From an uncultured Methylomirabilota bacterium (GTDB lineage: Bacteria > Methylomirabilota > Methylomirabilia > Methylomirabilales > 2-02-FULL-66-22), in assembly GCA_963845565.1 (NCBI GenBank), contig CAWJSJ010000001.1, forward strand, positions 448,001 to 512,000: 64,000 nucleotides of DNA, in the 5' to 3' direction. Numbering within the stretch: position 1 is the stretch's first letter; each line of letters opens with the position of its first letter. Below, piece by piece: positions 10,323 to 37,434 of this stretch. The notes below the pieces were generated by a model, which saw nothing but the letters and a program-made list of their open reading frames with translations, was not told the DNA's origin and made no database searches. Made by a program: the position numbers and the translations under genes.

Positions 10323-10346
10323 TGGGACTCCCTGCGGTGCGTCGGT

Positions 10347-10373: not shown

Positions 10374-10392
10374 CGCCGCAACAAAAAAAAGC

Positions 10393-12988: not shown

Positions 12989-13259
12989 ATCCGGCGGATG
13001 ACAAATCGCCAGGGACCGCGCGGGGGGATGCGATGCGCCAGTAGCACTGAACCGGGTCAAGGGCAAATCTGATGGTTAGCGGGGCATATTTCGAACATTT
13101 CCCCCCCCGTTTGTAGTCGCACGTCCTCCTTGTAACAACTCTGATCCAATGCGCACTGTTCGTTGGTAATCCGCGCCGTTGATGTGCTACGATCCGCCCC
13201 CAAGGCGATCCCGTAAGGATCTGGGTGTCGGTGTTCGGACGGGACCATGCAGGAGCGAT

Positions 13260-13802
13260 ATGCCGAGTCGGTTGATCATCGTATTGAGCGTCCTGTATCC
13301 CGTGGTGGTGTACGTTGGGGGCCGGTATTTTCCGCCGCAAGCGCTCGCGCTGGTCCTTGCGCTGGTCGTCCTGACGCGCAGGACGGGTGCCTTCGGCGTC
13401 CGGATCGGCCCCTGGTCGGTGGCGTGCGGTCTGATTCTGGCCGTTCTGGCGTTCGGACTCAACGACGCGCTGCCGCTCAAGATGTATCCCGTGGCGGTGA
13501 ACGCATCCCTGCTGGCGATCTTTGCCTCCAGCCTGAGATACCCGCCCCCCATCGCCGAGCGCATCGCCCGCATCCGCGTTCCCGACCTTCCGCCGGAGGC
13601 GGTGGCGTACACGCGCAAGGTGACGCAGGCGTGGTGCGCCTTTTTCGTGGTGAATGCGTTGGTCGCCTTGTGGACCGCCACCCGGTGGCCGGTCCAGGCG
13701 TGGTTCTACTACAACGGGATCATCGCCTATCTCCTGGTCGGGGTCATGTTCGGCGCTGAGTGGCTGGTGCGGCGACGCGTGCTGGCGGGGTACCATTGGT
13801 GA
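13260..13802 (+). CDS. COG4648-like membrane protein typical of aryl-polyene/fatty-acyl clusters
   Basis: RBS AGGAG. LYP..VY.G, LKMYPV.VN...L..FA.SL..PP.I.ERIAR, YTRKVTQAW..FF..N, W..YNG.IAY.L.G..F..EW.VR. Confidence 0.8.
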   Translation: MPSRLIIVLSVLYPVVVYVGGRYFPPQALALVLALVVLTRRTGAFGVRIGPWSVACGLILAVLAFGLNDALPLKMYPVAVNASLLAIFASSLRYPPPIAERIARIRVPDLPPEAVAYTRKVTQAWCAFFVVNALVALWTATRWPVQAWFYYNGIIAYLLVGVMFGAEWLVRRRVLAGYHW

Positions 13803-13856
13803 GGAGGGCGAAGGCATCGCGGCAGTCGCAGATCCAAGGGGAACACGGGGCATGCG

Positions 13857-15302
13857 ATGAGAGTGCTCCTGCTACGACCGGATCCCGGTAACGAGCGCTT
13901 CGGCCTGGGGCCGTTTTTTCGGGTGGAGCCGCTCGGCCTGGAGTACATCGGGGCGGCGCTCCGCGCTTGCGGCCACGAGCCGTGGATCGCGGATCTGCGG
14001 TTTCGTCCGGGCCTGGACACCTGGATCCGGCGCACCCGGCCCCAGTTGGTCGGCATCTCCTGCCTGCATTCACTCGAATACGACCGAGTGCGCGCGACCG
14101 CCCGGGCGGTCCGGCGGGCGGCGCCGGAGGCGTTCGTTCTGGTCGGGGGGCATGCGGCGGCGGCATTCCCGCGGCCGCTCGAATGCGACGAGGTTGATGC
14201 CATCTGCCTTGACGACGGCGAGGAGATCGTGCCGGCCCTGGTCGAGGCGATCGAGCGCGGTGCCCCCCTCGACATGCTGCCGGGGCTCCGACTGCGAATG
14301 GGCGGCGAGTGGCTCGCCACGCCTCCCCGGCCACGGCAGACCGGTCTGGATCTTGTACCCCTCCCGGCGCGCGACCTGGTCGAGCAACACCGGAATGGCT
14401 ATCACTGCCTGCTCTTCAAGCCGATCTGGCTGGTCGAGACGGCACGTGGCTGCCCGTATCGGTGCAGCTTTTGCTCGGTCTGGCAACTCTATGATCGTGC
14501 CTACCGGGAACGGTCCGTGGCGGCGGTGGCGGAGGACTTCGCCTCCGCCGGAGACGCCGTCTTCGTTGCGGACGACCTCTTCTGGCACCATCCGGCACGG
14601 AGCCGCGAACTCGCCGAGGCGCTCCGTAAACGTGGCGTGTCGAAGCGCTGGATCCTGGTGCAGACTCGGACCGACCTCATCTCGCGCCAGACGGAACTCC
14701 TCGAGGTGTGGCGGCCTCTGGCGAAGGATTTTGACATCTTCTTCGGGTTTGAGGCGGCCAGCGACGCCGGCCTCTCCCAGGTGGACAAAGACGCAGGGGT
14801 CGGGGCAAGCCTCGAGGCGGTGCGCATCGCCCGGTCCCTGGGTTACGGGGTCAACGGGAACTTCCTGATCGATCCCGACTGGACGGAGACCCATTTCGCG
14901 GAGCTGTGGGATTTCGTGGCGCGCCACGATCTCCGCCGGGCGGGATTCACCATCCTGACGCCGCTGCCGGGCACCGAATTTTTCGATCGGCTGGCCCCGC
15001 GGCTGGCGGGGCAGCCGTGGCATGCTTACGATATGCACCATCTGCTCTGGGAGCCGCGACTCGGCGCGCGGCGTTTCTTCGAGCTGTATGCCGAAACCTG
15101 GCGGCGATCCATCCTCAACGCGTCCGGAGACAAGACGTGGCTGGACTGGGTGCGGCAGGTGCGACCAACGATGGTACCGTATCTGCTGCGCGTGCTCTGG
15201 CGCACCCAGCGGATGATGAAACCCGAGGCCTACCTCGGCGAGTACCAGGCAACGAACCGGACGTGTCCCGGGTCTTCGAGCAGCGCCGGGGTCGCATCGT
15301 AG
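13857..15302 (+). CDS. B12-binding radical SAM protein (HpnR/BchE-like)
   Basis: EPLGLEYI, VGGHAA, GE (cobalamin-binding domain), ETARGCPYRCSFCSVW, TILTPLPGT. Confidence 0.9.
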   Translation: MRVLLLRPDPGNERFGLGPFFRVEPLGLEYIGAALRACGHEPWIADLRFRPGLDTWIRRTRPQLVGISCLHSLEYDRVRATARAVRRAAPEAFVLVGGHAAAAFPRPLECDEVDAICLDDGEEIVPALVEAIERGAPLDMLPGLRLRMGGEWLATPPRPRQTGLDLVPLPARDLVEQHRNGYHCLLFKPIWLVETARGCPYRCSFCSVWQLYDRAYRERSVAAVAEDFASAGDAVFVADDLFWHHPARSRELAEALRKRGVSKRWILVQTRTDLISRQTELLEVWRPLAKDFDIFFGFEAASDAGLSQVDKDAGVGASLEAVRIARSLGYGVNGNFLIDPDWTETHFAELWDFVARHDLRRAGFTILTPLPGTEFFDRLAPRLAGQPWHAYDMHHLLWEPRLGARRFFELYAETWRRSILNASGDKTWLDWVRQVRPTMVPYLLRVLWRTQRMMKPEAYLGEYQATNRTCPGSSSSAGVAS

Positions 15303-15363
15303 CGAAATGGTGCGGTGTCGGGCCGCGACCTCAGCGGCGGGAGGTAGGCGCAGGACCGTGGCA

Positions 15364-16257
15364 ATGGAGACCGTGGTGGACACCCCGGACCGGCCGAAGC
15401 CCTTCCGACATGTGCTGGCCGCCCCCTGGTTCTATCGTCTGGGGTTCGCGGCGGCGCGCGCGGTGCCCGTTCCCGTTCTGTACGGGATTGCCGATGGCCT
15501 GGGCGTGGCCACGTATCTGACCAACGGCAGGTTGGTCGCCGCAGTGCGCGCGAACCTGACGCGCGCATTCCCCCAGGCATCCGAGCGTGAACGATCACGC
15601 CTGATACGGCGGATCCTCCGGAACTACGTGCGATACCTGGTCGATTACGGCCGTTTTCGGTGGACGCGGCGAGAGGGGTTCGAGGCGCTGATCCCTGCAC
15701 TCGAGGGCGGAGATCACCTACAGGGAGCGTTTGCCGCCGGGCGGGGCGTGATCCTGGTTACGGGGCATGTGGGCAACTGGGAATTGGGGGGGACGTTCTT
15801 CGGCCAATCCGGCGTCAAGATCCATGTGGTCACCCTGCCGGACGGGCACCGACAGATCGACGCCATTCGGGAGCGATATCGGGGGCGCCACGCGATCAGC
15901 ACGATCGTCCTCGACGGGTCGCCGTTTGCCTCGTTGGAGATGATGGCAGCGCTGAAGCGCAACGAGATGGTGGCTATGCTGGTCGACCGGTGGGGGGAAG
16001 CGGATGGGATCGAGTCGCCCTTCTTGGGCGGGACGCATCACCTTCCCCGCGGCCCCTTTGTGCTGAGCCGGGCGACCGGGGCGCCGATCCTGCCTGCCTT
16101 TGTCGTGCGCGACGGGGCCTCCTACCTGGGGATTGTGGAGCCTCCCTTTGTCGTCGAGGGGGACGACTTGGGGCCCTATGCGGCTCGCGTCAGCGGTGCG
16201 CTGGAGCGCGTCATCCGGCGCTACCCGGATCAGTGGTATAATTTCATTCCTGTGTGA
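15364..16257 (+). CDS. Lysophospholipid acyltransferase (lipid A lauroyl transferase/PatA-like family)
   Basis: GHVGNWE (HX4E), MLVDR, F.G, GP..L...TGAPILP, IRRYPDQW. Confidence 0.88.
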   Translation: METVVDTPDRPKPFRHVLAAPWFYRLGFAAARAVPVPVLYGIADGLGVATYLTNGRLVAAVRANLTRAFPQASERERSRLIRRILRNYVRYLVDYGRFRWTRREGFEALIPALEGGDHLQGAFAAGRGVILVTGHVGNWELGGTFFGQSGVKIHVVTLPDGHRQIDAIRERYRGRHAISTIVLDGSPFASLEMMAALKRNEMVAMLVDRWGEADGIESPFLGGTHHLPRGPFVLSRATGAPILPAFVVRDGASYLGIVEPPFVVEGDDLGPYAARVSGALERVIRRYPDQWYNFIPV

Positions 16258-16287
16258 GGCGGCGAGCGCAACCGGAAGGACGGCGAC

Positions 16288-17817
16288 ATGCACCTGACGA
16301 CGCTGGCGGGACGGCGGATTCCCGGTATCACGCGATCGCTTCCGCGGACGGTTCGGTCGCTCTGCCCGGAGTGCCTCCAGACGATCCCGGCAGAGGAATT
16401 GGCCGAGGATGGGCGCGTAGTCATGCGGAAGGCGTGCCCGACGCACGGGCCGTTCAAGGACGTCGTGTTCTCCGACGCCGAGATGTTCCTCCGCATGGAG
16501 GCGTGGCATTTCGGAGACGGCCAGGGGTTCGCGAACCCCCAAGGAGATGCGGACGGGGAGTGTCCGCAGCGGTGCGGCATCTGCGGCTGGCACACCAGCC
16601 ACACCTCGCTGGCCAACGTGGACCTGACCTCCCGGTGCAATCTGTCCTGCCAAGTGTGCTTTGCCGACGCCAACGGGCAGGCCTATGAACTGTCGTTCGA
16701 GCAGGCCATGGACACCCTGCGCCGGCTCCGGGGACAGTGCCCGGCGCCGGCGTTCGCGGTGCAGTTTACCGGCGGGGAACCGACGCTGCATCCGCGGTTT
16801 CTCGACATCGTGGCCGGGGCGAAGGCCCTGGGGTTTTCCCACCTCCAGGTGGCCAGCAACGGGCTGAAGCTGGCGGATCCGGATTTCGCGTGCCGGGCCC
16901 GGGACGCGGGCCTGCAGTACGTGTACCTCCAAATGGACGGGACGACCGACGAGGTGTTCCTCGCGCTCCGCGGCGCGGCACTCCTCGATCGAAAGCTCGC
17001 CGTGCTGGCGTCGGCACGGAAAGCCGGCCTTCGGATCATCTTCGTTCCCACCATTGCCAAGGAGGTGAACGACCACCAGATCGGCGACCTGTTCCGACTG
17101 GCGTTCGAGCACCTGGACGTGCTCTCCGGCATCGCCTTCCAGCCGATGACCTTCACCGGCCGCGTGCCGGAAGGGGACCGGCTGCGTCTGCGCTTCACGC
17201 TCTCGGACCTGGCGCGCGAATTTGGCGAACAAACGGGAATCACGCGGCTGGACGCGGACTGGTTCCCGCTGAGCGCCGCCGTGCCCCTCATCCGGTACGC
17301 CGGGGCCCTGACCGGCACCGCGCTGGTCAACCACACGTGCCACCCGCATTGCGGTCTGATGACCCTGCTGTTCGTCGATCAGGACCGGCGGGCGGTCCCG
17401 ATCACGCGGTTCCTGGACCTCTATTCCCTCCTCACGGATCTCGACGCGTTGGCGGCAAAGACGCACCCGACGAGCATCAAGGTCCTGTCGAAGGCCCGGG
17501 CGCTCCAGGCGCTCAACCGGCACTTCCATTCCGACCGCGCCCCGGAGGGGCTGACGTTCTTGCGATTCCTCCAGACACTGGACGGATTCGGCGACAAGCG
17601 GTACTCCTGGAGCGACGCCCACCGGGGGTACACGTACAAGACCTTCTACGTGCTCGGGATGCATTTCATGGACGCCTACAATTACGATCTCGAGCGCGTT
17701 TCGCGGTGCGGGGTCCATTATTCCGCTCCCGATGGGAAGATCTATCCGTTCTGCTCGTACAATTCGGGGCCGACCTTTCGAAAGCGAGTGGAAGAGGGAG
17801 TGGGATGGGCGCGCTGA
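16288..17817 (+). CDS. Radical SAM protein, tetraether synthase (Tes/GDGT-MAS)-like
   Basis: SLCPEC...K.CP.HG, CP..CGIC..H..HT.LANVDLT.RCNL.C.VCFA, VQF.GGEPT, YLQ.DG, FQP, CHPHCG, GMHFMD.YNYD.ERV.RC.VHY, DG.I.PFC.YN. Confidence 0.8.
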   Translation: MHLTTLAGRRIPGITRSLPRTVRSLCPECLQTIPAEELAEDGRVVMRKACPTHGPFKDVVFSDAEMFLRMEAWHFGDGQGFANPQGDADGECPQRCGICGWHTSHTSLANVDLTSRCNLSCQVCFADANGQAYELSFEQAMDTLRRLRGQCPAPAFAVQFTGGEPTLHPRFLDIVAGAKALGFSHLQVASNGLKLADPDFACRARDAGLQYVYLQMDGTTDEVFLALRGAALLDRKLAVLASARKAGLRIIFVPTIAKEVNDHQIGDLFRLAFEHLDVLSGIAFQPMTFTGRVPEGDRLRLRFTLSDLAREFGEQTGITRLDADWFPLSAAVPLIRYAGALTGTALVNHTCHPHCGLMTLLFVDQDRRAVPITRFLDLYSLLTDLDALAAKTHPTSIKVLSKARALQALNRHFHSDRAPEGLTFLRFLQTLDGFGDKRYSWSDAHRGYTYKTFYVLGMHFMDAYNYDLERVSRCGVHYSAPDGKIYPFCSYNSGPTFRKRVEEGVGWAR

Positions 17818-17839
17818 CGCGGGGCTTGCTGTGACCGGG

Positions 17840-18562
17840 ATGAGGCTCCGCTTCGCTGCGATCGCGGCGCTGGGGTTGTCCTGGTGGACCCCTGGGGGAC
17901 CGGCGGCGGCGCCTGCCCCTGCTCCGATTGAGGGCAAGGAGCGAATCGAGGTTATCGAGCGCCTCCAGACGCAGCAGCGACAGATTACGAGTCTTCGGGC
18001 CACGGTTGTGCAGAGGAGGCGGCACCCGCTCCTGACCGCCGAGGCGGTGAGCGAGGGCACCTTGCTCTTCCAGAAACCCAACCGGGTTCGGTGGGAGGTG
18101 GACAAACCGGATCGGGCCGTCATGGTGATCGACGGGCGCTCGTTGATGACCTATCGCCCCGACAGGCAGGAGGCCGAGCGAAGGGATTTCGGGGCGGATT
18201 TCGGCGCCCGCGCGGCCGTGGAGTTTCTCGCCTCGGGAATGAGTCTTGCGGTGCCCGAACTCGAGAAGCGGTTCCAGGTGGACATGCACCGGGAGGACGG
18301 GATCTTGGTCCTCGTGCTCACGCCCCGATCCCGATGGGCGGCGAAGGCGGTCGCGTCGGTGGCGCTCTATCGGCAAGCGCAGGACGCGGTGCCCAGCCGG
18401 ATCGTGATCTCCGGCCAGCCGGGCGATCGGACGGAGATCACGCTGACCGATATCGTCATCAATCCCCCGGTTGCCGAGGACGCGTTTACCCTCCGTCTTG
18501 GGCCGGGGGTCCGGGTGACGGACATCAGCAGACCGGGAGGAGAGAAGGGCAGTGACCGTTAG
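17840..18562 (+). CDS. LolA-like outer-membrane lipid/lipoprotein carrier
   Basis: Signal peptide, S.G.L.F.KP.R.RWE..KP..MVIDG, C-terminal IN......F. Confidence 0.82.
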   Translation: MRLRFAAIAALGLSWWTPGGPAAAPAPAPIEGKERIEVIERLQTQQRQITSLRATVVQRRRHPLLTAEAVSEGTLLFQKPNRVRWEVDKPDRAVMVIDGRSLMTYRPDRQEAERRDFGADFGARAAVEFLASGMSLAVPELEKRFQVDMHREDGILVLVLTPRSRWAAKAVASVALYRQAQDAVPSRIVISGQPGDRTEITLTDIVINPPVAEDAFTLRLGPGVRVTDISRPGGEKGSDR

Positions 18563-19655
18563 GCCGTCCGCCACCTGCGGGGTGATCGAGCTTCCGGTGC
18601 GCCGAATCCACCTGGAATTGACGAACCGGTGCAACTTCGCCTGCGAGTTCTGCCCAGACGATCGCATGGTTCGGCCTCGCGGCGCCATGCCGCTCTCCCT
18701 GGTCGAGCGTCTGCTGGCGCAAGCCGGCCGGGACCGTGTCGCCCGGGAGGCGCACTTCCACGTCATGGGGGAACCGCTGCTCTATCCCGCGCTGACCGAC
18801 GCGGTCCGCCTTGCCCGCGGCAGCGGGCTGGAGGCGTGGCTGACCACGAACGGGAGCCTGTTGACCCCGGACCTGCTGACGGACCTCCGGGACGCCGGCC
18901 TCTCCCACCTGACTATCTCGCTGCAGACGCCCGATGGCCCCACCTTCGGCCTGCGTGGGTCCCATCGCCTCTCCTTTGCGGAGTACCAGGAGCGGATGGT
19001 TGGCGCAGTGCGCCGCTTTCTGGCGGACGAGTCGGGGATGCACCTTTCGGTCTGCTTTTTGTCCAATCCGCTGCGCCGGTTCCATGCCCCGGGCGCGGCC
19101 CGGCTGCGCGTGGCCGAGTCCGGGAAGGAGTTGCGCGCGCACATGGCGCGTTGGGTGGACGAGATCTTCGGCGGTACGGCCTTCGAGCGCCAGGTGCCGG
19201 AACTCCGCGCTCGGATCCGGAAGGCCGGCATCTTGAAGGAAGGCTGCATCCCCCTGACCGCACACCTTGACTTCCGGGTCCGCGTCCTGGGGAACTGGGC
19301 GGGGCACTTCGCAGGTCCTTTCGTTCCCGCCCGGTTCGGCTACTGCCCGGGGCTGGCCGAGCAGTTCGGGGTCCTGTGGAACGGGGACTACGTGATCTGC
19401 TGCGCGGATTACGACGGACGAACGGCCTTGGCGAACGCCTCGGAAACCTCAGTGGTGGAGTATCTGTCGCTGCCCGCGGTGCAGGAGATCGCGGGTGGCT
19501 TCCGACGGCATCGCGTCATCCACCCGCATTGCCGGCAGTGTCTCGGGGATCGGCACCCGGTGAGTTCCTTCCTGCGGCAGGCCGGATCGATCGTCTATTT
19601 CAAGGTCTACCGGAAGTTCATGAAGGATGGAGTCACAGGGCGGGGCACGGCATGA
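18552..19655 (+). CDS. Radical SAM protein with twitch/SPASM domain
   Basis: ELTNRCNFACEFC, GEPLL, TTNG, C-terminal YC....Q.GVLWNGD.V.CC.DY...CRQC. Confidence 0.9.
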   Translation: MTVRPSATCGVIELPVRRIHLELTNRCNFACEFCPDDRMVRPRGAMPLSLVERLLAQAGRDRVAREAHFHVMGEPLLYPALTDAVRLARGSGLEAWLTTNGSLLTPDLLTDLRDAGLSHLTISLQTPDGPTFGLRGSHRLSFAEYQERMVGAVRRFLADESGMHLSVCFLSNPLRRFHAPGAARLRVAESGKELRAHMARWVDEIFGGTAFERQVPELRARIRKAGILKEGCIPLTAHLDFRVRVLGNWAGHFAGPFVPARFGYCPGLAEQFGVLWNGDYVICCADYDGRTALANASETSVVEYLSLPAVQEIAGGFRRHRVIHPHCRQCLGDRHPVSSFLRQAGSIVYFKVYRKFMKDGVTGRGTA

Positions 19656-21007
19656 ACCTCCTGCTCATATCACCACTGACATCCAAGAGCCTGCTGGGGG
19701 CCGATTTCTATTTCCGGATGCCGACGCTGGGCCTGCTGCGGGTCGCCGGCGCGACACCGCCCGAGTGGACGGTGAGTATCCTCGACGAGAAGGCGGAGCC
19801 GATCGATTTCTCGCGCCCGGCGGACCTGGTCGGAATCACGGGGATGACCCCCGCTATCAACCGCGCGTACGAGATTGCCGATGCGTTCCGCGGCCGCGGC
19901 GTGCCCGTGGTGATGGGGGGAATCCATGTCAGCATGTTGCCGGACGAGGCGCTGGCGCATTGCGATGCCGTGGTCATCGGCGAAGCGGAAGGGCTCTGGG
20001 CGCGTCTGCTGGCGGACTTCCGGGAGGGGCGGCTGCAGCGCCGCTACCAGCACACCGCATTTCCGCCCTTGACGCGGCTCGGCAGCCCGCCGTGGCCCCT
20101 CTACGACGGGAAGCGGTACCTGCCGTTTCACTGCGTGGAGACCAGTCGGGGATGCCCGCACGGATGCGATTTCTGTTCCGTGACGAATTACTTCGGAGGA
20201 TGTTACCGCACGCGCCCGCCGGCGGAGGTGGAGGCGGAGATCCGCGGACTGCGCCCCTTCGCGGGGCGATTCACGCTGAAGAACGTCGTCTTCTTCGTGG
20301 ACGACAACATCGCGGGGGACCGCGCCCATGCGTGCGACTTGCTGACCCGGATGATTCCCTATCGGCTCAAGTGGCTTGGCCAGGCGTCGACCGGCATTGC
20401 TCGAGACGACGAGGTGCTGGACCTGTGCCGGAAGAGCGGCTGCATGGGTCTGCTGATCGGTTTCGAGACGCTGTCTCGGGAGCGGCTCAAGGCGGTGCGT
20501 AAGGGATTCAATCGCCCCGACGACTACCTGGACGCCATCCGGAAAATTCACGATTACGGGATCGGCATCAGCGGCGCGTTCGTCTTCGGTCTGGATGGCG
20601 ACGACGAAGGGGTGTTCGACCGGACCTACGAGTTCGTGCAAAAGGCGAGGCTGGAGAGCCCCTACTTGTCTATCCTTACCCCCTACCCCGGGACACGCCT
20701 ACACCGAAAACTTGCGGACGAAGGGCGCATTGTCGATTTGGACTGGTCCAATTACAACACCAACAACGTGGTGTACCGGCCCCAGGGGATGACGGCAGAG
20801 CAGTTGTTCGACGGGTATTTCCAGCTGCAGAAGGCGGTCCACACGGTGCCGGCCATCGTGCAGCGGTTCTGGGGAACCACCTCGCGGGCCAACTTCTGGC
20901 TGCCCATGAATTACGGGTTCCGTCGCTCGGTCCAGAAGCTGGCGGCGCGGTCGCGAGAGTTTCGCCCGGTCGGGTCGGGCTTTACGAACACGACGCCCGC
21001 CGCGTGA
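19652..21007 (+). CDS. B12-binding radical SAM protein (paralogue A)
   Basis: P.LGL..VA..TP, DE, VVMGGIH, IGEAE, TSRGCPHGCDFCSV, FFVDDN, ILTPYPGT. Confidence 0.92.
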   Translation: MNLLLISPLTSKSLLGADFYFRMPTLGLLRVAGATPPEWTVSILDEKAEPIDFSRPADLVGITGMTPAINRAYEIADAFRGRGVPVVMGGIHVSMLPDEALAHCDAVVIGEAEGLWARLLADFREGRLQRRYQHTAFPPLTRLGSPPWPLYDGKRYLPFHCVETSRGCPHGCDFCSVTNYFGGCYRTRPPAEVEAEIRGLRPFAGRFTLKNVVFFVDDNIAGDRAHACDLLTRMIPYRLKWLGQASTGIARDDEVLDLCRKSGCMGLLIGFETLSRERLKAVRKGFNRPDDYLDAIRKIHDYGIGISGAFVFGLDGDDEGVFDRTYEFVQKARLESPYLSILTPYPGTRLHRKLADEGRIVDLDWSNYNTNNVVYRPQGMTAEQLFDGYFQLQKAVHTVPAIVQRFWGTTSRANFWLPMNYGFRRSVQKLAARSREFRPVGSGFTNTTPAA

Positions 21008-22185
21008 CCGTGATGCGATGCGCGCGCGCTTCTCGGATCCTGATCCTGGACGGCTTCTGGAACAAGGCGCTGGCGGGGGTGCGCTCCCTGGGGCGGCGCG
21101 GCTTCTTCGTCGGTGTGGGGGAAAGGACGCGGCTCACCCCCGCGATGTTCTCGCGCTACTGCCGGCGCCGGCTTGTGCACCCCTCCGTCTCCAGGCGGCC
21201 GGATGCGTTCCTGGCGGTGTTGGAGCGGGAGCTCGAGATCGGCGGCTACGATGTGCTCTTGCCCATGGAACTCTCCACGCAACTCCTGGTCACGGCGCAT
21301 CGGGAGCGTCTGGCACCATTGGTGCGGATCCCCTTCGCGGATGCCGAGGCGACCCGCCGCGTCGATGACAAGGGATCGCTCGCCGCGTTCGCAACGGCGC
21401 GCGGGATCGCGTGCCCGGCCACGTTCTTTCCACGGGGGCCGGTGGATGCCGCCGCGATGGCGGGCGAGTTCCCCTATCCGGTCCTCATTAAGCCGCGCCA
21501 TTCCTCGGGCGGGCGGGGGATCGCACGGGTGGAATGCGCCGCGGACTTCGCGACGGCGTATGCCCGGGTCCATGGCCGATCGGCCGCGCCGATCGTGCAG
21601 GAATGTCTCCCCCCGGGCGGGGAGGCCCTGGGTGTGGCCGTACTGATGAACTTCGCCTCGGAACCGAGGGCGTCATTCACCTACCGGCGCCTCCGGGAGT
21701 ATCCGATCACCGGCGGCCCGAGCACGCTTCGAGAGAGCATCTGGGATCCGGCGCTTCAACAGCGCGCGGAACACCTGCTGGCATCGTTGAGCTGGACCGG
21801 GGTGGCCATGGTGGAGTTCAAAGTGGATCCGCGGGACGGCGAACCGAAACTGCTGGAGGTCAATCCCCGTTTCTGGGGCTCGCTCCACCACGCGATTCTC
21901 TGCGGCGTCGATTTTCCGTTCCTCCTGTACCGGTTAGCCATGGACGGGGATGTGGATCGGGTGATGCGATATCAGGTCGGGGTCAGGAGCCGCTCGCTGC
22001 TCCATGGCGACATGATGCATTTTCTGGCGAACCCCAACCGGTGCCACCTGACGCCCAGGCTACACGACTTCTCCATCCCCGATGACGTCCTCTCGGCGGA
22101 TGATCCCTTGCCGACTCTCGGGCGCATCGCGTCCCTGGTGGCACTGGCGCGCGACCGGGAATTGCGCGCACTGGCGTGGAACTGA
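21004..22185 (+). CDS. ATP-grasp ligase
   Basis: DK, PVLIKP..SSGGRG, IVQE.LP, R.REYP.TGGPS, MVEFK, LLEVNPRFWGS. Confidence 0.88.
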   Translation: MTVMRCARASRILILDGFWNKALAGVRSLGRRGFFVGVGERTRLTPAMFSRYCRRRLVHPSVSRRPDAFLAVLERELEIGGYDVLLPMELSTQLLVTAHRERLAPLVRIPFADAEATRRVDDKGSLAAFATARGIACPATFFPRGPVDAAAMAGEFPYPVLIKPRHSSGGRGIARVECAADFATAYARVHGRSAAPIVQECLPPGGEALGVAVLMNFASEPRASFTYRRLREYPITGGPSTLRESIWDPALQQRAEHLLASLSWTGVAMVEFKVDPRDGEPKLLEVNPRFWGSLHHAILCGVDFPFLLYRLAMDGDVDRVMRYQVGVRSRSLLHGDMMHFLANPNRCHLTPRLHDFSIPDDVLSADDPLPTLGRIASLVALARDRELRALAWN

Positions 22186-22186
22186 G

Positions 22187-23242
22187 ATGAGGCGTCGGGA
22201 ACGACGAGCCTGCAGATCGGCAGTGGTCCGCCGCGCATGGACGTTGGCCGCGGTGTTGCTTTTCCTAGGCGGCGCGGCATGTAGTACGACGGACAAGCGC
22301 GTCGGGCCGCAGGTGTACTCGCAGCCCCGCTACGGGATCGATCGGTTCGTCGAGGCAAAAGGCTACCGCCTCCATTACGTGGAGGCGGGTTACGGACCGC
22401 CGGTGGTGCTGATTCCGGGCGCCTTTACGACCTATCGAGCGTGGGACGGTATGCTGCCCGCCCTGTCCGTCCACCACCGGGTTCTTGCGTTCGACTACGT
22501 CGGCGTCGGGGATTCGGACCAACCGAGTGACGGGTTCGGGTATACGTTGGAGGAGCAGGCGGATGTGATGCGGGAGGCGATCGTCACTCTCGGTGTGGTC
22601 GGGACGAGGGTTATCGGTGCGTCGTACGGAGGTGCGGTGGCGTTGAATCTTGCCGCCCGGTATCCGGAACTGGTCAGCCGGGTCGTCTGCATCGAGGGCG
22701 GGGCGCTGATCGCACCCGAGGTGCTGAACTACAGTGCACTCGGACGCCTCATCGATTGGCCCGTGCTGGGGGACATCATCTGGGGGTTCATGAAGTCCGG
22801 TCTCTTCGACACGATCACGGCGCGATCGGTGATGGGGAACGCCTGGGCGGACTTGACGCCGGAAGCCCGCCGCGATGTCACCGGGGTCTTCTCGGCGAAC
22901 ATCATGACCGTGTCGCGGGCGTCGTGGATGGGAATCTACCGAGCGATCACGACTCGGATCGACTTCCTGGAGGCCCTGCAACGCACCCGAACCCCCGTGC
23001 TCTACCTGTACGGGGAGGCGTCGAAGTATCGGGCCGTGGCCGAGGCGAACGCGAGGCAGTTCTCGGAACGCCATCCGACCATCGAAGTGGTGGCGTTCCG
23101 TAACGGGATCCACGACTTGCACCTGCAGTATCCCGAAGAGATCAGCAGGCTGGCCTTGGGCTTCTTCGGGGCGGCGCCGAGCGCGCAGTTGGCCGGCGGG
23201 GGCGCGGCCAAAGCGGAGAGCGCGGCAGTCGTGGGGCCGTGA
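22187..23242 (+). CDS. Alpha/beta hydrolase, predicted lipoprotein
   Basis: Hydrophobic leader ending in GAAC lipobox, D..G.G.S, G-A-S-Y-G nucleophile elbow, GIHDLH. Confidence 0.85.
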   Translation: MRRRERRACRSAVVRRAWTLAAVLLFLGGAACSTTDKRVGPQVYSQPRYGIDRFVEAKGYRLHYVEAGYGPPVVLIPGAFTTYRAWDGMLPALSVHHRVLAFDYVGVGDSDQPSDGFGYTLEEQADVMREAIVTLGVVGTRVIGASYGGAVALNLAARYPELVSRVVCIEGGALIAPEVLNYSALGRLIDWPVLGDIIWGFMKSGLFDTITARSVMGNAWADLTPEARRDVTGVFSANIMTVSRASWMGIYRAITTRIDFLEALQRTRTPVLYLYGEASKYRAVAEANARQFSERHPTIEVVAFRNGIHDLHLQYPEEISRLALGFFGAAPSAQLAGGGAAKAESAAVVGP

Positions 23243-23264
23243 GGTCACCAGGAAAGGGATCGAC

Positions 23265-24620
23265 GTGACACCCTGCGATCATTCGGGACGCCATCCGTTT
23301 CGCATCCTCCTGGTCTCCCCGGTGGACAAGGCCATGCTGGGGCAGGACTTTTACTTCAGATTCCCCCATCTCAGTCTGCCCACGTTGGCCGCCTACACCC
23401 CGGCGGAGGCCTCCGTGGAGATCGTGGATGAAAAGTTTCATCCCTTGCCGGAGGGGCAGGGTTACGATCTGGTCGGCATTTCCGCCATGACCCCGCTCGC
23501 GCCCAAGGCGTATCGCATTGCAGACACGTACCGGCGGCGAGGGATTCCTGTGGTCATGGGCGGGTATCACCCGACCGTGCTGCCGGACGAGGCGCTCGAG
23601 CACGCGGACAGTGTCTGTATCGGGGAAGCGGAGACGCTCTGGTCCACCATCGTGACGGACGCCATGGCCGGCCGACTCAAGGAGCGATACCGCTCCGACG
23701 CGTTTCCCTGCCTCGACAATCTGCCGGCACCCCGGCGGGAGTTGCTGCGGGTTCCCCGCTCCCGGCGGTTCGAGCACATCAACGTGCATTTCGTGCAGAC
23801 GACCCGGGGCTGCCCCTTCCGGTGTTCCTTCTGCGCCGTGACCAGCGTGCTGGGGGGCAAGCTCCGACACCGCCCCGTCGCGGAGATCGAAGCCGAGATC
23901 GAGGCGCTGGGCGTTCGCCGTTTGGACCGAGGCCAGAAGCGCGACCGGTTTCATAACATCATCTTCTTCACCGACGACAACATCGTGGGCCACCGAGGGT
24001 ACTCGCGAGAACTCTTGCGCATGGTCGCTACCTTCAACCTGAAATGGGTCGGACAAGCCTCGACCAACGTAGCCGACCACGAGGAAATCCTCGGCCTTCT
24101 CCGGGATTCGGGCTGCATGGGGCTGGCCGTAGGCTTCGAGACGCTCTCACAGAAGAACATCCGGGACGTCGGTAAGGGCGTGAACCGGACGCAGGAGTAT
24201 CTGGAGCGCATCCGCAAGATCCATTCCTACGGGATCGGGCTCGCGGGGAATTTCATCTTCGGATTCGATCACGACGACGCCACGACTTTTGCCGAGGTGG
24301 TCCGTTTCGTGGATGCGGCCCGGCTCGACGGATTCTACTACTCGCTCCTGACCCCGTATCCGGGGACCCCGTTTTTCGACCAGATGAAAGCCGAGGGCCG
24401 CCTGCTGGAGACGGACTGGTCGCTGTACGACACGGACCACGTGGTGTACCGTCCCCGGCTGATGGATGCCGAAACCCTGATGAAAGGTTATCGCTGGGCC
24501 TGGCGGCGCAGCCTTGAATACCGGAGCATTCTCACCAGGCTCCTGGGCTCGCGGAACCAGCTCATCTTTTTCGGCCCCATGAACTACGGGATGCGCCGTA
24601 CGATCCTGGCGCACCGGTAA
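23265..24620 (+). CDS. B12-binding radical SAM protein (paralogue B)
   Basis: L.LPTLAAYTP, VVMGGYH, IGEAE, QTTRGCPFRCSFCAV, FFTDDN, LLTPYPGT. Visibly similar to 19652..21007. Confidence 0.92.
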   Translation: MTPCDHSGRHPFRILLVSPVDKAMLGQDFYFRFPHLSLPTLAAYTPAEASVEIVDEKFHPLPEGQGYDLVGISAMTPLAPKAYRIADTYRRRGIPVVMGGYHPTVLPDEALEHADSVCIGEAETLWSTIVTDAMAGRLKERYRSDAFPCLDNLPAPRRELLRVPRSRRFEHINVHFVQTTRGCPFRCSFCAVTSVLGGKLRHRPVAEIEAEIEALGVRRLDRGQKRDRFHNIIFFTDDNIVGHRGYSRELLRMVATFNLKWVGQASTNVADHEEILGLLRDSGCMGLAVGFETLSQKNIRDVGKGVNRTQEYLERIRKIHSYGIGLAGNFIFGFDHDDATTFAEVVRFVDAARLDGFYYSLLTPYPGTPFFDQMKAEGRLLETDWSLYDTDHVVYRPRLMDAETLMKGYRWAWRRSLEYRSILTRLLGSRNQLIFFGPMNYGMRRTILAHR

Positions 24621-24656: not shown

Positions 24657-25634
24657 ATGCGGTGCACAGCGAGAGCGCTTTTCCTCTGTATGGTTGTTTC
24701 GCTCTGCGTTTCGCACACCGTGGCCGCTGAAATCCTCACCAATGAGGCGGTCGTCACGATGGTCAAGGCAGGACTCGGGGACGACGTGATCGTCGGCAAG
24801 GTCCGGCTGACGCAGGGACAGTACGATCTCTCCACCAACGGCCTCCTGCGCCTCAAGGCCGACGGAGTGAGCGAAGCGGTCATCAAAGCCATGATCGAGG
24901 CGTCGGCCGGTGGGGAGGCACCCGGGCCGAAGCCGGTCCAGGCAGCGACGGCTCCCGCGGAGGCAGCGCGTCGCGAAGAGGCGGCCATCGCGCTCTACAA
25001 ACAGGGGAAGATGGCAGAGGCCGCGGCGGCGTTTGACCGGCTGATCGCCGAGAAGCCGGACGACGCCGGACTCAGGGTGTGGAAGGCCCTCACGCTGCTG
25101 GAGCAGGCGCGCGAGATCAAGGACAACAATGCGTCCGGGTACAAACCCCTGGTCATGAACGCCTATGCCATCCTTCAGCCGCTCAAGCCGAGGCTGGCGA
25201 CCAACGCGGATTGGAATTTCGCGATGGCCAAGGCCTTCTGGCTGAACGCCTCGCCCACCTGGGCGAGTCGGGCCGCGGGGAACGCACTCCGCCTGCAGGC
25301 GAATTATCCGGAAGCGCAGCTGCTCCTGGGCGACCTGGCCTATGACAGCGAGGTGAGCTCGCTGAACCAGGCCCCCGGCAGTCCGGGGCGGGAGGCCACA
25401 CTGCGGTGGGCGGGCGCCGCGCCTCGGAGGGAAATCGACAAGGCGCTGGCCATGCCGGACCTGCCCCCATCACTCCGCGCGGAGGCGTTTTACAAGCTCG
25501 GTGTGATCTCGGCGGAATTGCAAGGCAAGTCAGAGACGGCGCGTGAATACTGGGAGCGCGCGGTGGCCGCCGATCCCGCCTGCCGATACGGCCGCATGGC
25601 CCAACGCCGTCTCCAAGCGCCGCCCGCGAAGTGA
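24657..25634 (+). CDS. Secreted TPR-like protein
   Basis: RBS GAGGAGG, signal peptide, LTN..VV.MVKAGL.D..I..K...YDLS...L..LK..GVS..VI.AM domain, TPR-like helices. Confidence 0.7.
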   Translation: MRCTARALFLCMVVSLCVSHTVAAEILTNEAVVTMVKAGLGDDVIVGKVRLTQGQYDLSTNGLLRLKADGVSEAVIKAMIEASAGGEAPGPKPVQAATAPAEAARREEAAIALYKQGKMAEAAAAFDRLIAEKPDDAGLRVWKALTLLEQAREIKDNNASGYKPLVMNAYAILQPLKPRLATNADWNFAMAKAFWLNASPTWASRAAGNALRLQANYPEAQLLLGDLAYDSEVSSLNQAPGSPGREATLRWAGAAPRREIDKALAMPDLPPSLRAEAFYKLGVISAELQGKSETAREYWERAVAADPACRYGRMAQRRLQAPPAK

Positions 25635-26557
25635 TGCACGCGACAGCAAGCGGGGGCCGGACTGCCGCCTCCTGCGGACGGACGCGCGCGGCCCCGCCCT
25701 TTGTCGCCGGCCCTCCTGTTCCGGTGGCGAGTGTGCGAGACCTGAATGCCCTGACGGTGGACCTGGAAGATTGGTACCACGTGTGCGGGGTGAAATCGGT
25801 TGAGGGCCCTCGGCAGTGGGGGGCTTTGGAAAGCCGCGTCGTCCGGAGCACCGAACGCCTTCTTTCGCTCCTGCAGTCGCACGGCATCCGGGCCACGTTC
25901 TTTGTGCTGGGGTATGTCGCCGAGCGGGAGCCGGGCCTGGTGCGTGCCATCGCCCGAGAAGGGCACGAGGTGGGCCTCCACGGGCACGTCCACCGCAGGA
26001 TCTTCGAGATGTCGCCCGCCGAGTTCGACGAGGATCTGGTTCGCGCCCAGGCGGCCGTCTCGGCGGCCGCGGGCACCGACGTGGTCGGCTACCGGGCGCC
26101 GGAGTGGTCTATGCGTCCGCATACCCTGTGGGCCTTGTCGATTCTGAGAAAGCGAGGAATTCTCTACGATTCCAGCATGGTGCCCCTCACCCGGATGGGG
26201 GATCGATCCTTTCCCCGTGTTCCCTGCCGCTTCGACACTCCGAATGGAGAGATCGTGGAGTTTCCGTTGACAACAGTTCGATGTTTCGGCGAAAGTATCC
26301 CCTTCTCGGGGGGGTTGCCTCTGAGGTTGACTCCCTACTTCTTCATCGTGTCGCAGATCCGTCGCCTGAACGCGGCCGGGAAACCCGCACTGGTATATGT
26401 CCATCCCTGGGAATTCGACCTCGAACAGCCGAGGATCGGGCTGCCGTGGAGCCGCAGGTTCATGCACGATTTCAACCTGCCGGCGACCCCACGGAAACTC
26501 TCGGGCCTTCTGACACATTTCCGGTTCGCTCCGATCCGGGAGGTGCTGGTCACTTAA
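25631..26557 (+). CDS. Polysaccharide deacetylase (DUF3473-type)
   Basis: NALTVDLEDWYH, ATFFVLG, HG..H, GYRAP.WS, YDSS, Y.HPWEFD. True start may lie further downstream. Confidence 0.88.
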   Translation: MMHATASGGRTAASCGRTRAAPPFVAGPPVPVASVRDLNALTVDLEDWYHVCGVKSVEGPRQWGALESRVVRSTERLLSLLQSHGIRATFFVLGYVAEREPGLVRAIAREGHEVGLHGHVHRRIFEMSPAEFDEDLVRAQAAVSAAAGTDVVGYRAPEWSMRPHTLWALSILRKRGILYDSSMVPLTRMGDRSFPRVPCRFDTPNGEIVEFPLTTVRCFGESIPFSGGLPLRLTPYFFIVSQIRRLNAAGKPALVYVHPWEFDLEQPRIGLPWSRRFMHDFNLPATPRKLSGLLTHFRFAPIREVLVT

Positions 26558-26779
26558 TTGTGGGATCGACAGTACGCCTCATCACTCGGGATCTTCGTTG
26601 GCGTCGCCGTCGTTTGCCTCATCGGGATCATGTCCCTGCTGCTCTGGCTCGGCTGGGCCGGCGTCGCGGGACTCTCGGCGATCGCGGGCGGATTCTTGGC
26701 CTGGTTCTACTGGGCCCCTCGTCCGGACCTGACCCCGAGGGGCGACGAGCCCGAACCGGATGGGACGCAGCATGACTAG
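26558..26779 (+). CDS. Small two-TM membrane protein
   Basis: 73-aa ORF with two hydrophobic segments, tightly packed between the deacetylase and the ketosynthase. Confidence 0.55.
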   Translation: MWDRQYASSLGIFVGVAVVCLIGIMSLLLWLGWAGVAGLSAIAGGFLAWFYWAPRPDLTPRGDEPEPDGTQHD

Positions 26780-27995
26780 TCGCGTCGCCATCACGGGGAT
26801 GGGGATCGTGACGTGCTACGGCATCGGCACGTCCGCGACCTGGGGAAAGATCCTCGCCGGGGAACCCGGCATCCGCCCCATCACTCTCTTTGACACGTCC
26901 GATTATCGCGTGACGCGGGCGGGGGAGTTTACCGATCTTCCGGTCGCGCCGTGGCGGCGATTCCGTGCCACGCGGATGGACCGCGCCTCCAACCTGTTGC
27001 ATCATGCGCTCGCCGGCGCACTGGGCGGGTTGGACATGCCGGCGACCGCCACGGTGCCCGTGCCGCCCCTGGTGGTCCTCGGCACCACACTCGGGGGCAT
27101 GACCTCGGGGGAGCAATACCATGGGATGTATCTCCGGAAAGGGCCGGCCCTGGCGCGACCTTCCCTGGTGGTGGGGCACCTCGCCCAAGCGCAGGTCCTC
27201 CAAATCATGGACGAGTTCTCGCTTCCGGGCGTGCCGCGCATCTTTTTGAACGCGTGCACGTCAAGCGCCAACGCCATCGGCCATGCGTTCCGCGCGGTTC
27301 GCGGCGGGCGGGCCCAGGTCGCGCTGTGCGGAGGGTATGACGCGCTGTGCGTTTTCGGGTTCACGGGGTTCCACTCGCTCCAGGCGCTGACGACCGACGT
27401 GTGCCGGCCGTTCGATCGGAGTCGCGACGGGCTTTCGATCGGCGAAGGGGCCGGGATCCTCCTCCTCGAGTCGTGGGACCGCGCCCAGGCGCGTGGGGCG
27501 CCGATCCTCGGAGAGATCGTCGGGTACGGGGAATCGACCGATGCGTTCCACATGACGCGCCCGGAACCCGAGGGTTGCATGGCGGCGCTGGCGATCCAGG
27601 CCGCCGTCCGGGACGCCGGGATCAGCGCCGCGGAGGTGGATTACGTGAACGCGCACGGAACCGGGACACCGTTCAACGACCGGTCGGAGACGGCCGCCCT
27701 GGTGGCCGCCATGGGGGAGCGTGCCTATACGATTCCGGTGAGCTCCACCAAGGCGATGATTGGCCATCTGCTGGGCGGGGCCGGTGCCGCGGAAGCGATT
27801 CTCACCGTGTTGGCCCTCAGGGACGCATGGCTTCCGCCGAATGGGAATTACCAGACGCCCGATCCCGACTGCGCCCTACGGATCGTCCGGCAGGCGGAAC
27901 GGCCGACACGCATGCGGTATGCGCTCTCCAATTCCTTCGGCTTCGGCGGAGCCAACGCCACCCTGGCGTTCCGAAGTGTGCGGGCGGACTCCTGA
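26772..27995 (+). CDS. fabF: Beta-ketoacyl-ACP synthase (FabF-like, active) 1
   Basis: RVAITGMG, NACTSS (catalytic Cys), AHGTGT..ND, KAMIGHLLG, SNSFGFGG.N. Confidence 0.92.
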   Translation: MTSRVAITGMGIVTCYGIGTSATWGKILAGEPGIRPITLFDTSDYRVTRAGEFTDLPVAPWRRFRATRMDRASNLLHHALAGALGGLDMPATATVPVPPLVVLGTTLGGMTSGEQYHGMYLRKGPALARPSLVVGHLAQAQVLQIMDEFSLPGVPRIFLNACTSSANAIGHAFRAVRGGRAQVALCGGYDALCVFGFTGFHSLQALTTDVCRPFDRSRDGLSIGEGAGILLLESWDRAQARGAPILGEIVGYGESTDAFHMTRPEPEGCMAALAIQAAVRDAGISAAEVDYVNAHGTGTPFNDRSETAALVAAMGERAYTIPVSSTKAMIGHLLGGAGAAEAILTVLALRDAWLPPNGNYQTPDPDCALRIVRQAERPTRMRYALSNSFGFGGANATLAFRSVRADS

Positions 27996-34735: not shown

Positions 34736-34745
34736 AGGGATACCC

Positions 34746-36110: not shown

Positions 36111-36195
36111 CGCCCACCACTCGGGACGCTCCTGCAGGGCAGATCGGCGGGTGTCGCCCGGGACGGGAGCCCGTCAGGGAAAGGCAGGCGGGGAG

Positions 36196-37046: not shown

Positions 37047-37172
37047 CACCCGTCATGCGGCGCCACGCAGGGGGCGCAGCCGAGCCGAGTGCCTCGCGCG
37101 AAGAGGTGTGCGGCCACCTCATACGGTCGCGTGTCGCCTTCCACCGCGTTGTCCCATCGGAGTGTCTGGCGT

Positions 37173-37430
37173 ATGAATGAGATTGTGCAGCGGGTCAGGG
37201 CATTGCTTTCGACGCGACTCAAATTGGCGACGGCGGTCGCGGGGATCACCGACGATACGCCGCTCTTCGGCCCGACCGGTCTTGGGCTCGACTCGATCGA
37301 TGCGCTGGAGTTGGTTTTGGGCCTGGAGAAGGAATTCGGGGTCGTCGTGGAGGATCGGGCGACGGCCGTCACGGTCCTGGCCTCCATCCGGACGATCGCG
37401 GAGCATATTCAGTCGCAGGGAAAGGGTTGA
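37173..37430 (+). CDS. Acyl carrier protein
   Basis: ITDDTPLFG..GLGLDSIDALEL...LEKEFG (phosphopantetheine Ser), aryl-polyene-cluster style ACP. Confidence 0.92.
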   Translation: MNEIVQRVRALLSTRLKLATAVAGITDDTPLFGPTGLGLDSIDALELVLGLEKEFGVVVEDRATAVTVLASIRTIAEHIQSQGKG

Positions 37431-37434
37431 GCGT

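Follow-up and report, generated by a model that had tools for sequence, protein, structure and literature searches.

Bacterial homologues of tetraether synthase (Tes), the archaeal radical S-adenosylmethionine (SAM) enzyme also described as GDGT-MAS, have been known since 2022; 456 of them were reported by Zeng 2022 (PMC8941075), where a role in the synthesis of brGDGTs (branched glycerol dialkyl glycerol tetraethers) was proposed, in particular for the Koribacter/Solibacter type of Tes from Acidobacteriota. The source of bacterial membrane-spanning lipids, which serve as climate proxies, is still debated. According to the accounts in PMC13159169 and PMC13459092, the sole bacterial tail-coupling enzyme shown experimentally is Mss, and the account of diabolic-acid producers by Sahonero-Canavesi 2022 (PMC13159169) assigns them Mss and no Tes. 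Here we analyze a 64,000-nucleotide (nt) stretch of the genome of an uncultured Methylomirabilota bacterium (contig CAWJSJ010000001.1, positions 448,001 to 512,000; hereafter, the window), in which the gene at 16288-17817 on the plus strand encodes a full-length member of the Tes/GDGT-MAS family, embedded in a cluster of genes for lipid biosynthesis and export that is conserved across phyla.

For clusters of this kind, a logic has been described for aryl-polyene lipids, in which a type II synthase builds the chain on a dedicated acyl carrier protein (ACP), ApeD loads it onto a lysophospholipid, a glycosyltransferase (GT) extends the head group, and a LolA-like protein together with a resistance-nodulation-division (RND) pump exports the product to the outer membrane (bioRxiv 10.1101/2020.12.19.423268). 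In full-text searches of the literature, we found no paper that ties tetraether synthase to LolA, MMPL, aryl polyenes or Methylomirabil- taxa, or that describes the gene context of Tes; supplements (those of Zeng 2022 and of a Black Sea study) lie outside the scope of this search and may list these phyla. Neither neighbour, operon and synteny nor Nitrospir- and Methylomirabil- occur as words in the main text of Zeng 2022 (PMC8941075).

A full-length Tes family protein with intact cofactor sites

The gene starts with ATG and encodes 509 amino acids (aa) in an intact frame. Its third codon positions have a GC content of 0.86, which fits a real gene given the 66% GC of the window. An earlier note on this DNA, made from the letters alone, had named a series of cysteine-rich motifs in the protein, all of which are present in the translation: C26-P-E-C29 ... 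C50-P-T-H53-G and C92-PQR-C96-GI-C99-GW-H102 in the N-terminal part, C117-NLS-C121-QV-C124 and C351-HPH-C355-G further on, and M458-HFMDAYNYDLERVSR-C474-GVH-Y478 ... PF-C489-SYN at the C-terminus. This set of motifs is far beyond chance. The note had also assigned the protein the Tes/GDGT-MAS architecture, and this assignment holds at the levels of domain, full-length profile, cofactor ligands and fold. Pfam detects Zn_ribbon_HMPTM (E 2.8e-17) and Radical_SAM (E 9.1e-19); the NCBIfam model NF045702, 'tetraether lipid synthase Tes', is matched with 474.9 bits against a cut-off of 450, over model positions 3-480 of 486; and the structures of GDGT-MAS from Methanocaldococcus jannaschii (PDB 7TOL and 7TOM) are matched at E 8.5e-109 over query residues 20-503. 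The model of the TrsS radical SAM (seleno)protein (NF045646) was considered as well and rejected, with 310.3 bits against a cut-off of 490 and only the N-terminal 300 residues aligned. An AlphaFold2 model built from a 16-row alignment (mean pLDDT 73, pTM 0.81) matches 7TOM and 7TOL in Foldseek over the full length, with TM scores of 0.75/0.77 (513 columns and E 2.3e-41 against 7TOM), whereas the next PDB matches share only the radical SAM core (TM ~0.3).

The note had further called for a check of the auxiliary iron-sulfur ligands, and all cofactor sites of GDGT-MAS map onto the window protein by alignment. The residue numbers of these sites come from the description in Lloyd 2022 (PMC9433317), with an offset of +20 between the native and the PDB-chain numbering that we derived from the alignment; conservation was counted across 143 family rows aligned with MAFFT, 48 of which belong to the clade of the window protein (see below). 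The rubredoxin-like iron site is formed by C26, C29, C50 and H53, corresponding to C9, C12, C33 and H36 of MJ0619, and is retained in 45-46 of the 48 clade rows. The N-terminal auxiliary [4Fe-4S] site (C92, C96, C99 and H102), the radical SAM CX3CX2C motif (C117, C121 and C124) and the SAM-loop residues G163, Q285 and R292 are each retained in all 48; the equivalent of Ser271 is T288, at a position that varies within the clade. M458 and Y478 are the equivalents of the labile Met439 and the strictly conserved Tyr459, respectively. C355, C474 and C489, kept in 47-48 of the 48 rows, are candidate ligands of the C-terminal cluster. Altogether, each of these residues is retained by at least 45, and up to 48, of the 48 rows; the misses are gaps at truncated ends plus one row that differs at the C50/H53 columns. 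Thus, the match to the family is full-length by both sequence and fold: the window protein is a full-length member of the Tes/GDGT-MAS family rather than a short COG1964-type radical SAM protein.

Phylogeny and gene neighborhood

At E<=1e-30, the family comprises 480 representatives in a library clustered at 50% identity. A scan with one genome per species found 246 relatives, of which the best 80 were used with 10-kb flanks, and neighbors were sought by tblastn of 29 window proteins against all these loci. In a FastTree phylogeny of the 143 rows, the clade that contains the window Tes comprises 48 rows and has a support of 100, and 31 Acidobacteriota rows form a separate clade. In an IQ-TREE phylogeny (LG+C20 PMSF, quick search) of 60 rows picked to span the FastTree tree, the 24 sampled members of the clade split off with an SH-aLRT support of 100; this tree is unrooted. 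The window Tes belongs, by these sequence-based trees, to a distinct, strongly supported clade.

The clade is also set apart by its neighbors. A lipid acyltransferase gene lies directly upstream of Tes, on the same strand, in 42 of the 46 loci of the window clade and in none of 33 other bacterial Tes loci, and a LolA gene lies directly downstream in 40 of 45 and 0 of 36, respectively; these counts cover 49 clade loci, four of which are the same records twice, the denominators are the loci with room for the neighbor, and the other bacterial loci are mostly from Acidobacteriota. Within the 48-row clade, 40 members have both neighbors, 5 have one, and 3 have none; three loci (L049, L050 and L056) form a small subclade without acyltransferase or LolA neighbors. 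Loci in which Tes is at least ~55% identical to that of the window carry cluster neighbors, and their labels include Methylomirabil-, Deferrimicrob-, 'Deltaproteobacteria', Nitrospirota/Dissulfurispiraceae and Thermodesulfobacteriota. Loci from Acidobacteriota, Poribacteria and similar sources, with Tes 48-55% identical to that of the window, have none of the cluster neighbors; in three Acidobacteriota loci scanned with Pfam, the genes next to Tes are mostly housekeeping or unrelated ones.

The conservation extends well beyond the immediate neighbors, as seen in longer stretches from four distant genomes (G252-G255) and from G016 of the same genus. In three Nitrospirota-labelled genomes with Tes 57-58% identical to that of the window (G253, G254 and G255), ~21 genes follow the order of the window, from the acyltransferase to the family 2 glycosyltransferase (GT2). 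In G252, the core is kept (acyltransferase, Tes, LolA, ATP-grasp, deacetylase, small protein and methyltransferase), with the synthase genes nearby on the opposite strand. The co-occurrence of Tes and cluster across genomes that the earlier note had proposed to examine is thus found across phyla.

Two further arrangements were seen. In 'Deltaproteobacteria'-labelled groundwater genomes (L041, also L040, L043 and L055), an MMPL gene lies directly upstream of the acyltransferase, and an ABC-2 transporter pair and a BtrH_N/DUF4872 protein are encoded downstream. In a Solibacteraceae-labelled locus, a 783-aa Tes-like open reading frame (ORF) with a zinc ribbon and a radical SAM domain (L059:7448-9799, +) lies directly upstream of Tes, the two being tandem paralogues.

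Organization of the gene cluster

The cluster spans 13179 to ~44327 (~31 kb), with all genes on the plus strand and separated by short gaps or overlapping. The position of Tes between an acyltransferase and a LolA-like gene, as well as the presence on the same strand of ketosynthase (KS), ACP, FabG, FabZ, methyltransferase and MMPL genes, all of which had been read from the letters in the earlier note, was recovered by Pfam and NCBIfam. The genes, all of them on the plus strand, are as follows.

13179..13802 (+), 207-aa protein, first gene of the block; no Pfam match, NCBIfam 17 bits only; also found beside the cluster in the close relatives L015 (87%) and L016 (70%)
13857..15302 (+), B12-binding radical SAM protein, distantly HpnR-like; Pfam B12-binding and Radical_SAM, TIGR04367 HpnR 232 bits against a cut-off of 650
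15307..16257 (+), LpxL/PIM-type lipid acyltransferase; Pfam Lip_A_acyltrans E 7.4e-37, no NCBIfam model above cut-off
16288..17817 (+), Tes/GDGT-MAS-family radical SAM enzyme; NF045702, 7TOL, fold
17732..18562 (+), LolA-like periplasmic lipid carrier; Pfam LolA E 2e-18, TIGR00547 87 bits and LolA2_flexi 69 bits, both below cut-off
18552..19655 (+), radical SAM/SPASM protein; Pfam Radical_SAM and SPASM
19376..21007 (+), B12-binding radical SAM protein that probably begins near 19652; Pfam, 59-60% identity in Nitrospirota-labelled clusters
21004..22185 (+), ATP-grasp ligase; Pfam ATPgrasp_Ter and ATP-grasp_3, present in 28 of 49 clade loci even though contigs are short
22082..23242 (+), alpha/beta hydrolase; Pfam Abhydrolase_1
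23265..24620 (+), B12-binding radical SAM protein; Pfam
24657..25634 (+), TPR protein; weak TPR matches
25631..26557 (+), polysaccharide deacetylase with DUF3473; Pfam, TIGR03006 261.8 bits, just below the cut-off of 276.2
26558..26779 (+), 73-aa protein; no family match, kept in relatives
26760..27995 (+), ketosynthase, FabF-like; Pfam ketoacyl-synt N and C domains, NF005589 381.9 bits, just below 387
27992..29062 (+), degenerate ketosynthase; weak match, N-terminal KS domain only
29059..30195 (+), SAM-dependent methyltransferase; Pfam Methyltransf_25
30188..31393 (+), second ketosynthase; Pfam
31794..33668 (+), PaaK/FlxY-like adenylating ligase, start probably later than the ORF start; NF053551 FlxY 396 bits against 520, relatives cover ~70% of the ORF
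33665..34735 (+), radical SAM/SPASM protein; Pfam
34482..36110 (+), 'lipid biosynthesis B12-binding/radical SAM protein' (TIGR04072, rSAM_ladder_B12); 396.3 bits against a cut-off of 360
35803..36924 (+), FabG-type ketoreductase, domain begins near 36202; Pfam adh_short_C2 E 6e-65
37089..37430 (+), acyl carrier protein; Pfam PP-binding, NCBIfam ACP models below cut-off
37177..37860 (+), FabZ-type dehydratase; NF000582 123.4 bits against a cut-off of 113
37857..38786 (+), SAM-dependent methyltransferase; Pfam Methyltransf_23
38684..41296 (+), MMPL/RND-type lipid exporter; Pfam MMPL E 1.1e-31, HpnN-like 240 bits against a cut-off of 752
41293..42588 (+), CrtI/phytoene-desaturase-like FAD (flavin adenine dinucleotide) oxidoreductase; Pfam Amino_oxidase, TIGR02734 139.5 bits against 238
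42588..43781 (+), GT2 glycosyltransferase; Pfam Glycos_transf_2
44061..44327 (+), YfhL-family 2x[4Fe-4S] ferredoxin; NF033683 111 bits against a cut-off of 86

The acyltransferase gene ends 30 nt before Tes, and the true start of the LolA-like gene is probably the Met codon at ~17840, which opens a signal-peptide-like stretch. The cluster encodes seven radical SAM proteins, namely, Tes, four B12-binding and two SPASM proteins; the YfhL-family ferredoxin is a possible reductant for them. The degenerate ketosynthase at 27992..29062 is possibly a partner akin to a chain-length factor (CLF). Taken together, these data support the view that Tes belongs integrally to a cluster dedicated to making and exporting lipids.

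Two readings of individual genes were rejected. Hopanoid functions for 13857-15302 (HpnR) and 38684-41296 (HpnN) fail on their scores, 232 against 650 and 240 against 752 bits, and the cluster has no hopanoid cyclase. Selenocysteine in the TIGR04072 gene was discarded because the sole reported TGA is the terminal stop (36108-36110). Contigs of 55-497 nt from four RNA libraries of three studies match positions scattered over 13179-33178 at 95-100% identity, and one of them (X1) overlies 16327-16657 in Tes; these could be carried-over DNA and are not counted as evidence of transcription.

Around the cluster, a cobalt/nickel uptake set of the ECF (energy-coupling factor) type, consisting of a NikR-like regulator, CbiM, CbiQ and an ABC (ATP-binding cassette) ATPase, is encoded at 7479-10812 (-), ~2.4 kb upstream; a link to the four B12-dependent radical SAM proteins would be a guess. 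Just past the cluster lies a gene for a small HEPN-domain protein (47168-47653, +), followed at 49970-53397 (+) by genes for an LptC-related protein, an LptB-like ABC ATPase and sigma-54 (RpoN), an arrangement seen in many diderms and in keeping with a diderm envelope.

Distribution within the genus and phylum

The host genome (5.36 Mb, 98.7% complete) has a single Tes gene. Across the phylum, Tes matches at E<=1e-60 are found in 11 of 251 genomes, with 6 exceeding the NF045702 cut-off. Window-type Tes is present in 6 of the 21 genomes of the genus (the window genome, G009, G010, G015, G016 and G022). The window-type TIGR04072 gene accompanies it in G009, G010, G015 and G022 (387-414 bits), and in G016 the copy is partial (321 bits) and likewise lies 18 kb from Tes; a TIGR04072 gene located 17-18 kb downstream of Tes is shared by G016, G253, G254 and G255. 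Of the 15 remaining genomes of the genus, G013 alone exceeds the TIGR04072 cut-off, and its copy is of another subtype (608 bits); the window-type copies, at ~387-414 bits against 608-645 bits for other copies, form a divergent subtype. Because window-type Tes and TIGR04072 co-occur across the genomes of the genus, the cluster is an accessory one that genomes either have or lack as a unit. In G017, a genome of one contig, sequences corresponding to the left and right flanks of the cluster are ~4.2 Mb apart, and no clean insertion site can be demonstrated.

Several additional observations concern relatives of the cluster genes. The sixth Tes match among the 20 other genomes of the genus, in G012 (L005, G012:C152:1096-2562), is 46% identical to the window Tes, scores 504.6 bits on NF045702 and belongs to a different clade, so that the genus contains two Tes lineages; on its 4-kb contig, acyltransferase and LolA neighbors were not seen. 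Elsewhere in the phylum, L011, L013 and L014 (genomes G055, G168 and G120) are TrsS-like relatives that fall below both the TrsS and the Tes cut-offs. The host genome has a second, weaker TIGR04072-like gene (G000:C2:1492236-1493504, 270 bits), and genomes of the genus that lack Tes have similar copies, of 272-297 bits. The cluster copy in G016 (L103+L104, G016:C17:44000-82000) has the same gene order, with many genes matching over only 44-80% of their length, which reflects either broken genes or frame errors in the assembly. Also in the host genome (G000:C1:359200-363500; L105:4208-8523, -), a 595-aa protein with two BcrAD_BadFG stretches is encoded beside an 849-aa DUF2229 protein; this split PlsA-like pair is a sequence-based candidate for the formation of ether or plasmalogen bonds.

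Proposed function and competing explanations

Given the family membership, the intact cofactor sites, the GDGT-MAS fold, the adjacency in the operon and the conservation of the cluster across phyla, we favor, on balance, the view that the window Tes is a working enzyme of the Tes/GDGT-MAS type, recruited into a bacterial gene cluster for lipid biosynthesis, that couples the tails of a lipid made by the cluster and exported by it. The substrate, reaction and destination that we infer are the following. The type II synthase of the cluster (ligase, ACP, the KS/CLF-like pair, the second KS, FabG and FabZ) would build a dedicated acyl chain, which would be tailored by the methyltransferases, the four B12-radical SAM proteins, the two SPASM proteins and the CrtI-like oxidase. 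The LpxL-type acyltransferase would then shift the chain from ACP to a glycerolipid or sugar-lipid acceptor, and the head group would be built by GT2, the deacetylase and the ATP-grasp enzyme. Acting after the acyltransferase, on the cytoplasmic side of the inner membrane, Tes would couple two tail carbons of the unactivated sp3 kind, a reaction that would consume two SAM molecules and involve its C-terminal [4Fe-4S] cluster; this placement before export is suggested because a radical SAM iron-sulfur enzyme must work in the cytoplasm. With the coupled tails coming from one molecule or from two, the product would be a macrocyclic or a double-headed lipid, which the MMPL pump and the secreted LolA-like carrier would take to the outer membrane. 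By analogy, this is the logic of the aryl-polyene systems, with Tes presumably inserted after the acyltransferase.

The substrate cannot be the archaeal one. A search of the 98.7% complete host genome for GGGPS/PcrB (PF01884; geranylgeranylglyceryl phosphate synthase) yielded only a 44-position, 23.6-bit fragment, with four archaeal controls positive; because the host lacks GGGPS, archaeol is not available, and we do not class the window Tes as an isofunctional archaeal GDGT synthase or macrocyclic archaeol synthase.

Several points weigh against tail coupling of the lipid made by the cluster. The structural model has low confidence in the cluster-binding loops of Tes (residues 76-106, 117-132 and 487-509). 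With 465-523 bits, the window clade has the lowest NF045702 scores of any Tes group, compared to 560-590 bits for Acidobacteriota and 570-730 bits for the highest-scoring library representatives, which are presumably archaeal (the score serves here as a proxy for archaeal versus bacterial branches); therefore, the substrate or the chemistry may have shifted. The cluster encodes no enoyl reductase and its starter ligase is PaaK/FlxY-like, so that the chain made by the cluster may be a polyene whose omega end is not a methyl group and could be aryl; such a chain would be a poor substrate for Tes-type chemistry, and Tes may then act on a different chain of the lipid. Finally, the function of bacterial Tes is described as unconfirmed in the 2025 Black Sea study (PMC11868695), and a 2026 review (PMC13459092) describes bacterial Tes homologues as detected only bioinformatically.

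The shift of chemistry just mentioned leads to the most serious competing explanation, namely, that the Tes scaffold hosts a different radical reaction on the chain of the cluster, such as formation of an intra-chain ring, a mid-chain cross-link or a stop at the C-S (thio) stage, Tes then being one of seven radical SAM enzymes that tailor the chain in a 'ladderane-type' pathway. The window clade is the most divergent of the Tes groups above the cut-off; the downstream half of the cluster resembles type II fatty acid synthesis (FASII) of the Kuenenia/Desulfotalea type, with unusual cyclised or polyunsaturated chains as the products (as discussed in PMC2649909); and GDGT-MAS itself is described as forming a C-S intermediate on its C-terminal cluster (PMC9433317). 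However, all the residues of the Tes mechanism are kept and the entire fold matches, and an acyltransferase is the tightest partner of Tes, pointing to a substrate with several chains already in place. We consider this explanation unlikely.

Somewhat less probable still is that Tes acts on ordinary membrane phospholipids to yield lipids of the iso-diabolic-acid/brGDGT type, with the cluster supplying only the branched chains. This is the role proposed for bacterial Tes by Zeng 2022 (PMC8941075), GDGT-MAS is reported to bind phosphatidic acid of E. coli (PMC9433317), the split PlsA-like pair might form ether bonds, and the B12-radical SAM proteins could add mid-chain methyls. The distribution and the gene content of the cluster argue otherwise: it is accessory (genus, 6 of 21 genomes; phylum, 11 of 251 at E<=1e-60) and has its own synthase and LolA/MMPL export pair; the Acidobacteriota Tes that is linked to brGDGTs belongs to another clade without the cluster context; and the known diabolic-acid producers, as described in PMC13159169, use Mss and lack Tes. 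The earlier note had considered the locus a candidate route to brGDGT- or diabolic-acid-like molecules, and these findings weaken that suggestion, making it less likely; a cluster of aryl-polyene/'ladderane-type' FASII with LolA and MMPL points to a specialised outer-membrane lipid rather than a bulk one.

A pterin methyltransferase or an inactive remnant is highly improbable: some sources keep the name 7,8-dihydro-6-hydroxymethylpterin dimethyltransferase (HMPTM) for homologues and the N-terminal Pfam domain is named after it, but Lloyd 2022 (PMC9433317) judges this annotation incorrect from the structure, in which the active site is a long hydrophobic tunnel, and the window gene has an intact frame and all ligands and is conserved in a lipid cluster.

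Returning to the tail-coupling reading, we tentatively suggest, with less confidence than in the coupling itself, that the product of the cluster represents an undescribed class of bacterial lipids, Tes-welded macrocyclic or double-headed glyco- or phospholipids that B12-radical SAM enzymes would methylate or cyclise and that would be exported to the outer membrane, which would be a second, Mss-independent route to membrane-spanning lipids. Its carriers are labelled Methylomirabilota, Nitrospirota and Deferrimicrobiota, and some orphan branched tetraether-like compounds of the geochemical record could come from this class. If a tail-coupled outer-membrane lipid is indeed made, bacteria would have taken over archaeal-type C-C coupling for the lipids of their envelope, and the clade would provide a new lipid class with a gene marker that differs from both Mss and Acidobacteriota Tes. 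The clade brings its own genes for substrate making, acyl transfer and export in one conserved operon, a self-contained, transferable and testable package, and the conserved cluster gives a concrete handle on what bacterial Tes enzymes make.

Comparison with known systems

With GDGT-MAS/Tes of M. jannaschii (MJ0619; 7TOL, 7TOM), the window Tes shares the four-domain architecture, the residues that ligate one Fe and three [4Fe-4S] clusters, as well as equivalents of Met439 and Tyr459. It differs in sequence (~35% identity to 7TOM in the Foldseek alignment) and in context, given that the window gene, unlike the archaeal one, lies in a fatty-acyl/polyketide-type cluster with export genes, in a bacterial host without GGGPS. 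The Acidobacteriota Tes is likewise bacterial and full-length, with 560-590 bits on NF045702 and 48-55% identity to the window Tes, but forms a separate clade and lacks the acyltransferase and LolA neighbors. An outer-membrane lipid with a membrane-spanning chain is also made by the AcpXL/LpxXL system of rhizobial lipid A, which relies on a dedicated ACP, a FabZ, two ketosynthases and an acyltransferase of the LpxL family; there, one chain is elongated to C28, without radical SAM coupling. Mss of Thermotoga and Thermoanaerobacter is, like Tes, a radical SAM enzyme, and couples two fatty-acyl tails; it is set apart by its description as only remotely related to Tes (PMC13159169).

The aryl-polyene and flexirubin clusters (ape and flx) have in common with the window cluster an adenylating ligase, ACP, KS/CLF, ketoreductase, dehydratase, methyltransferase, LpxL-type acyltransferase, GT2, a LolA-like protein and RND/MMPL. 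The window proteins fall below the flexirubin equivalog cut-offs (FlxY, 396 against 520; FlxB, 251.5 against 340; LolA2_flexi, 69.3 against 125), and no radical SAM gene is among the listed ape genes (bioRxiv 10.1101/2020.12.19.423268), compared to the seven in the window cluster; the latter shares part types with these clusters but is not a member.

The downstream half matches the 'ladderane-type' FASII clusters described for Kuenenia stuttgartiensis and Desulfotalea psychrophila by Rattray 2009 (PMC2649909), with TIGR04072 above cut-off in the window (396.3 against 360) and further shared parts that, as given in that account, include phenylacetyl-CoA-ligase-like and phytoene-dehydrogenase-like proteins, a GT, SAM enzymes, a polysaccharide-deacetylase-like protein and divergent FabF paralogues. 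The window cluster, in which TIGR04072 is joined by FASII paralogues as well as by a PaaK-like ligase, a GT and a CrtI-like oxidase, is of the 'ladderane-type'. It differs in that its TIGR04072 copy is of a divergent subtype and in that the cluster descriptions in PMC2649909 mention no Tes-like gene, acyltransferase-Tes-LolA unit or ATP-grasp enzyme. What is new compared to all these systems, as the evidence supports, is a distinct clade of bacterial Tes fixed in a lipid cluster that is conserved across phyla.

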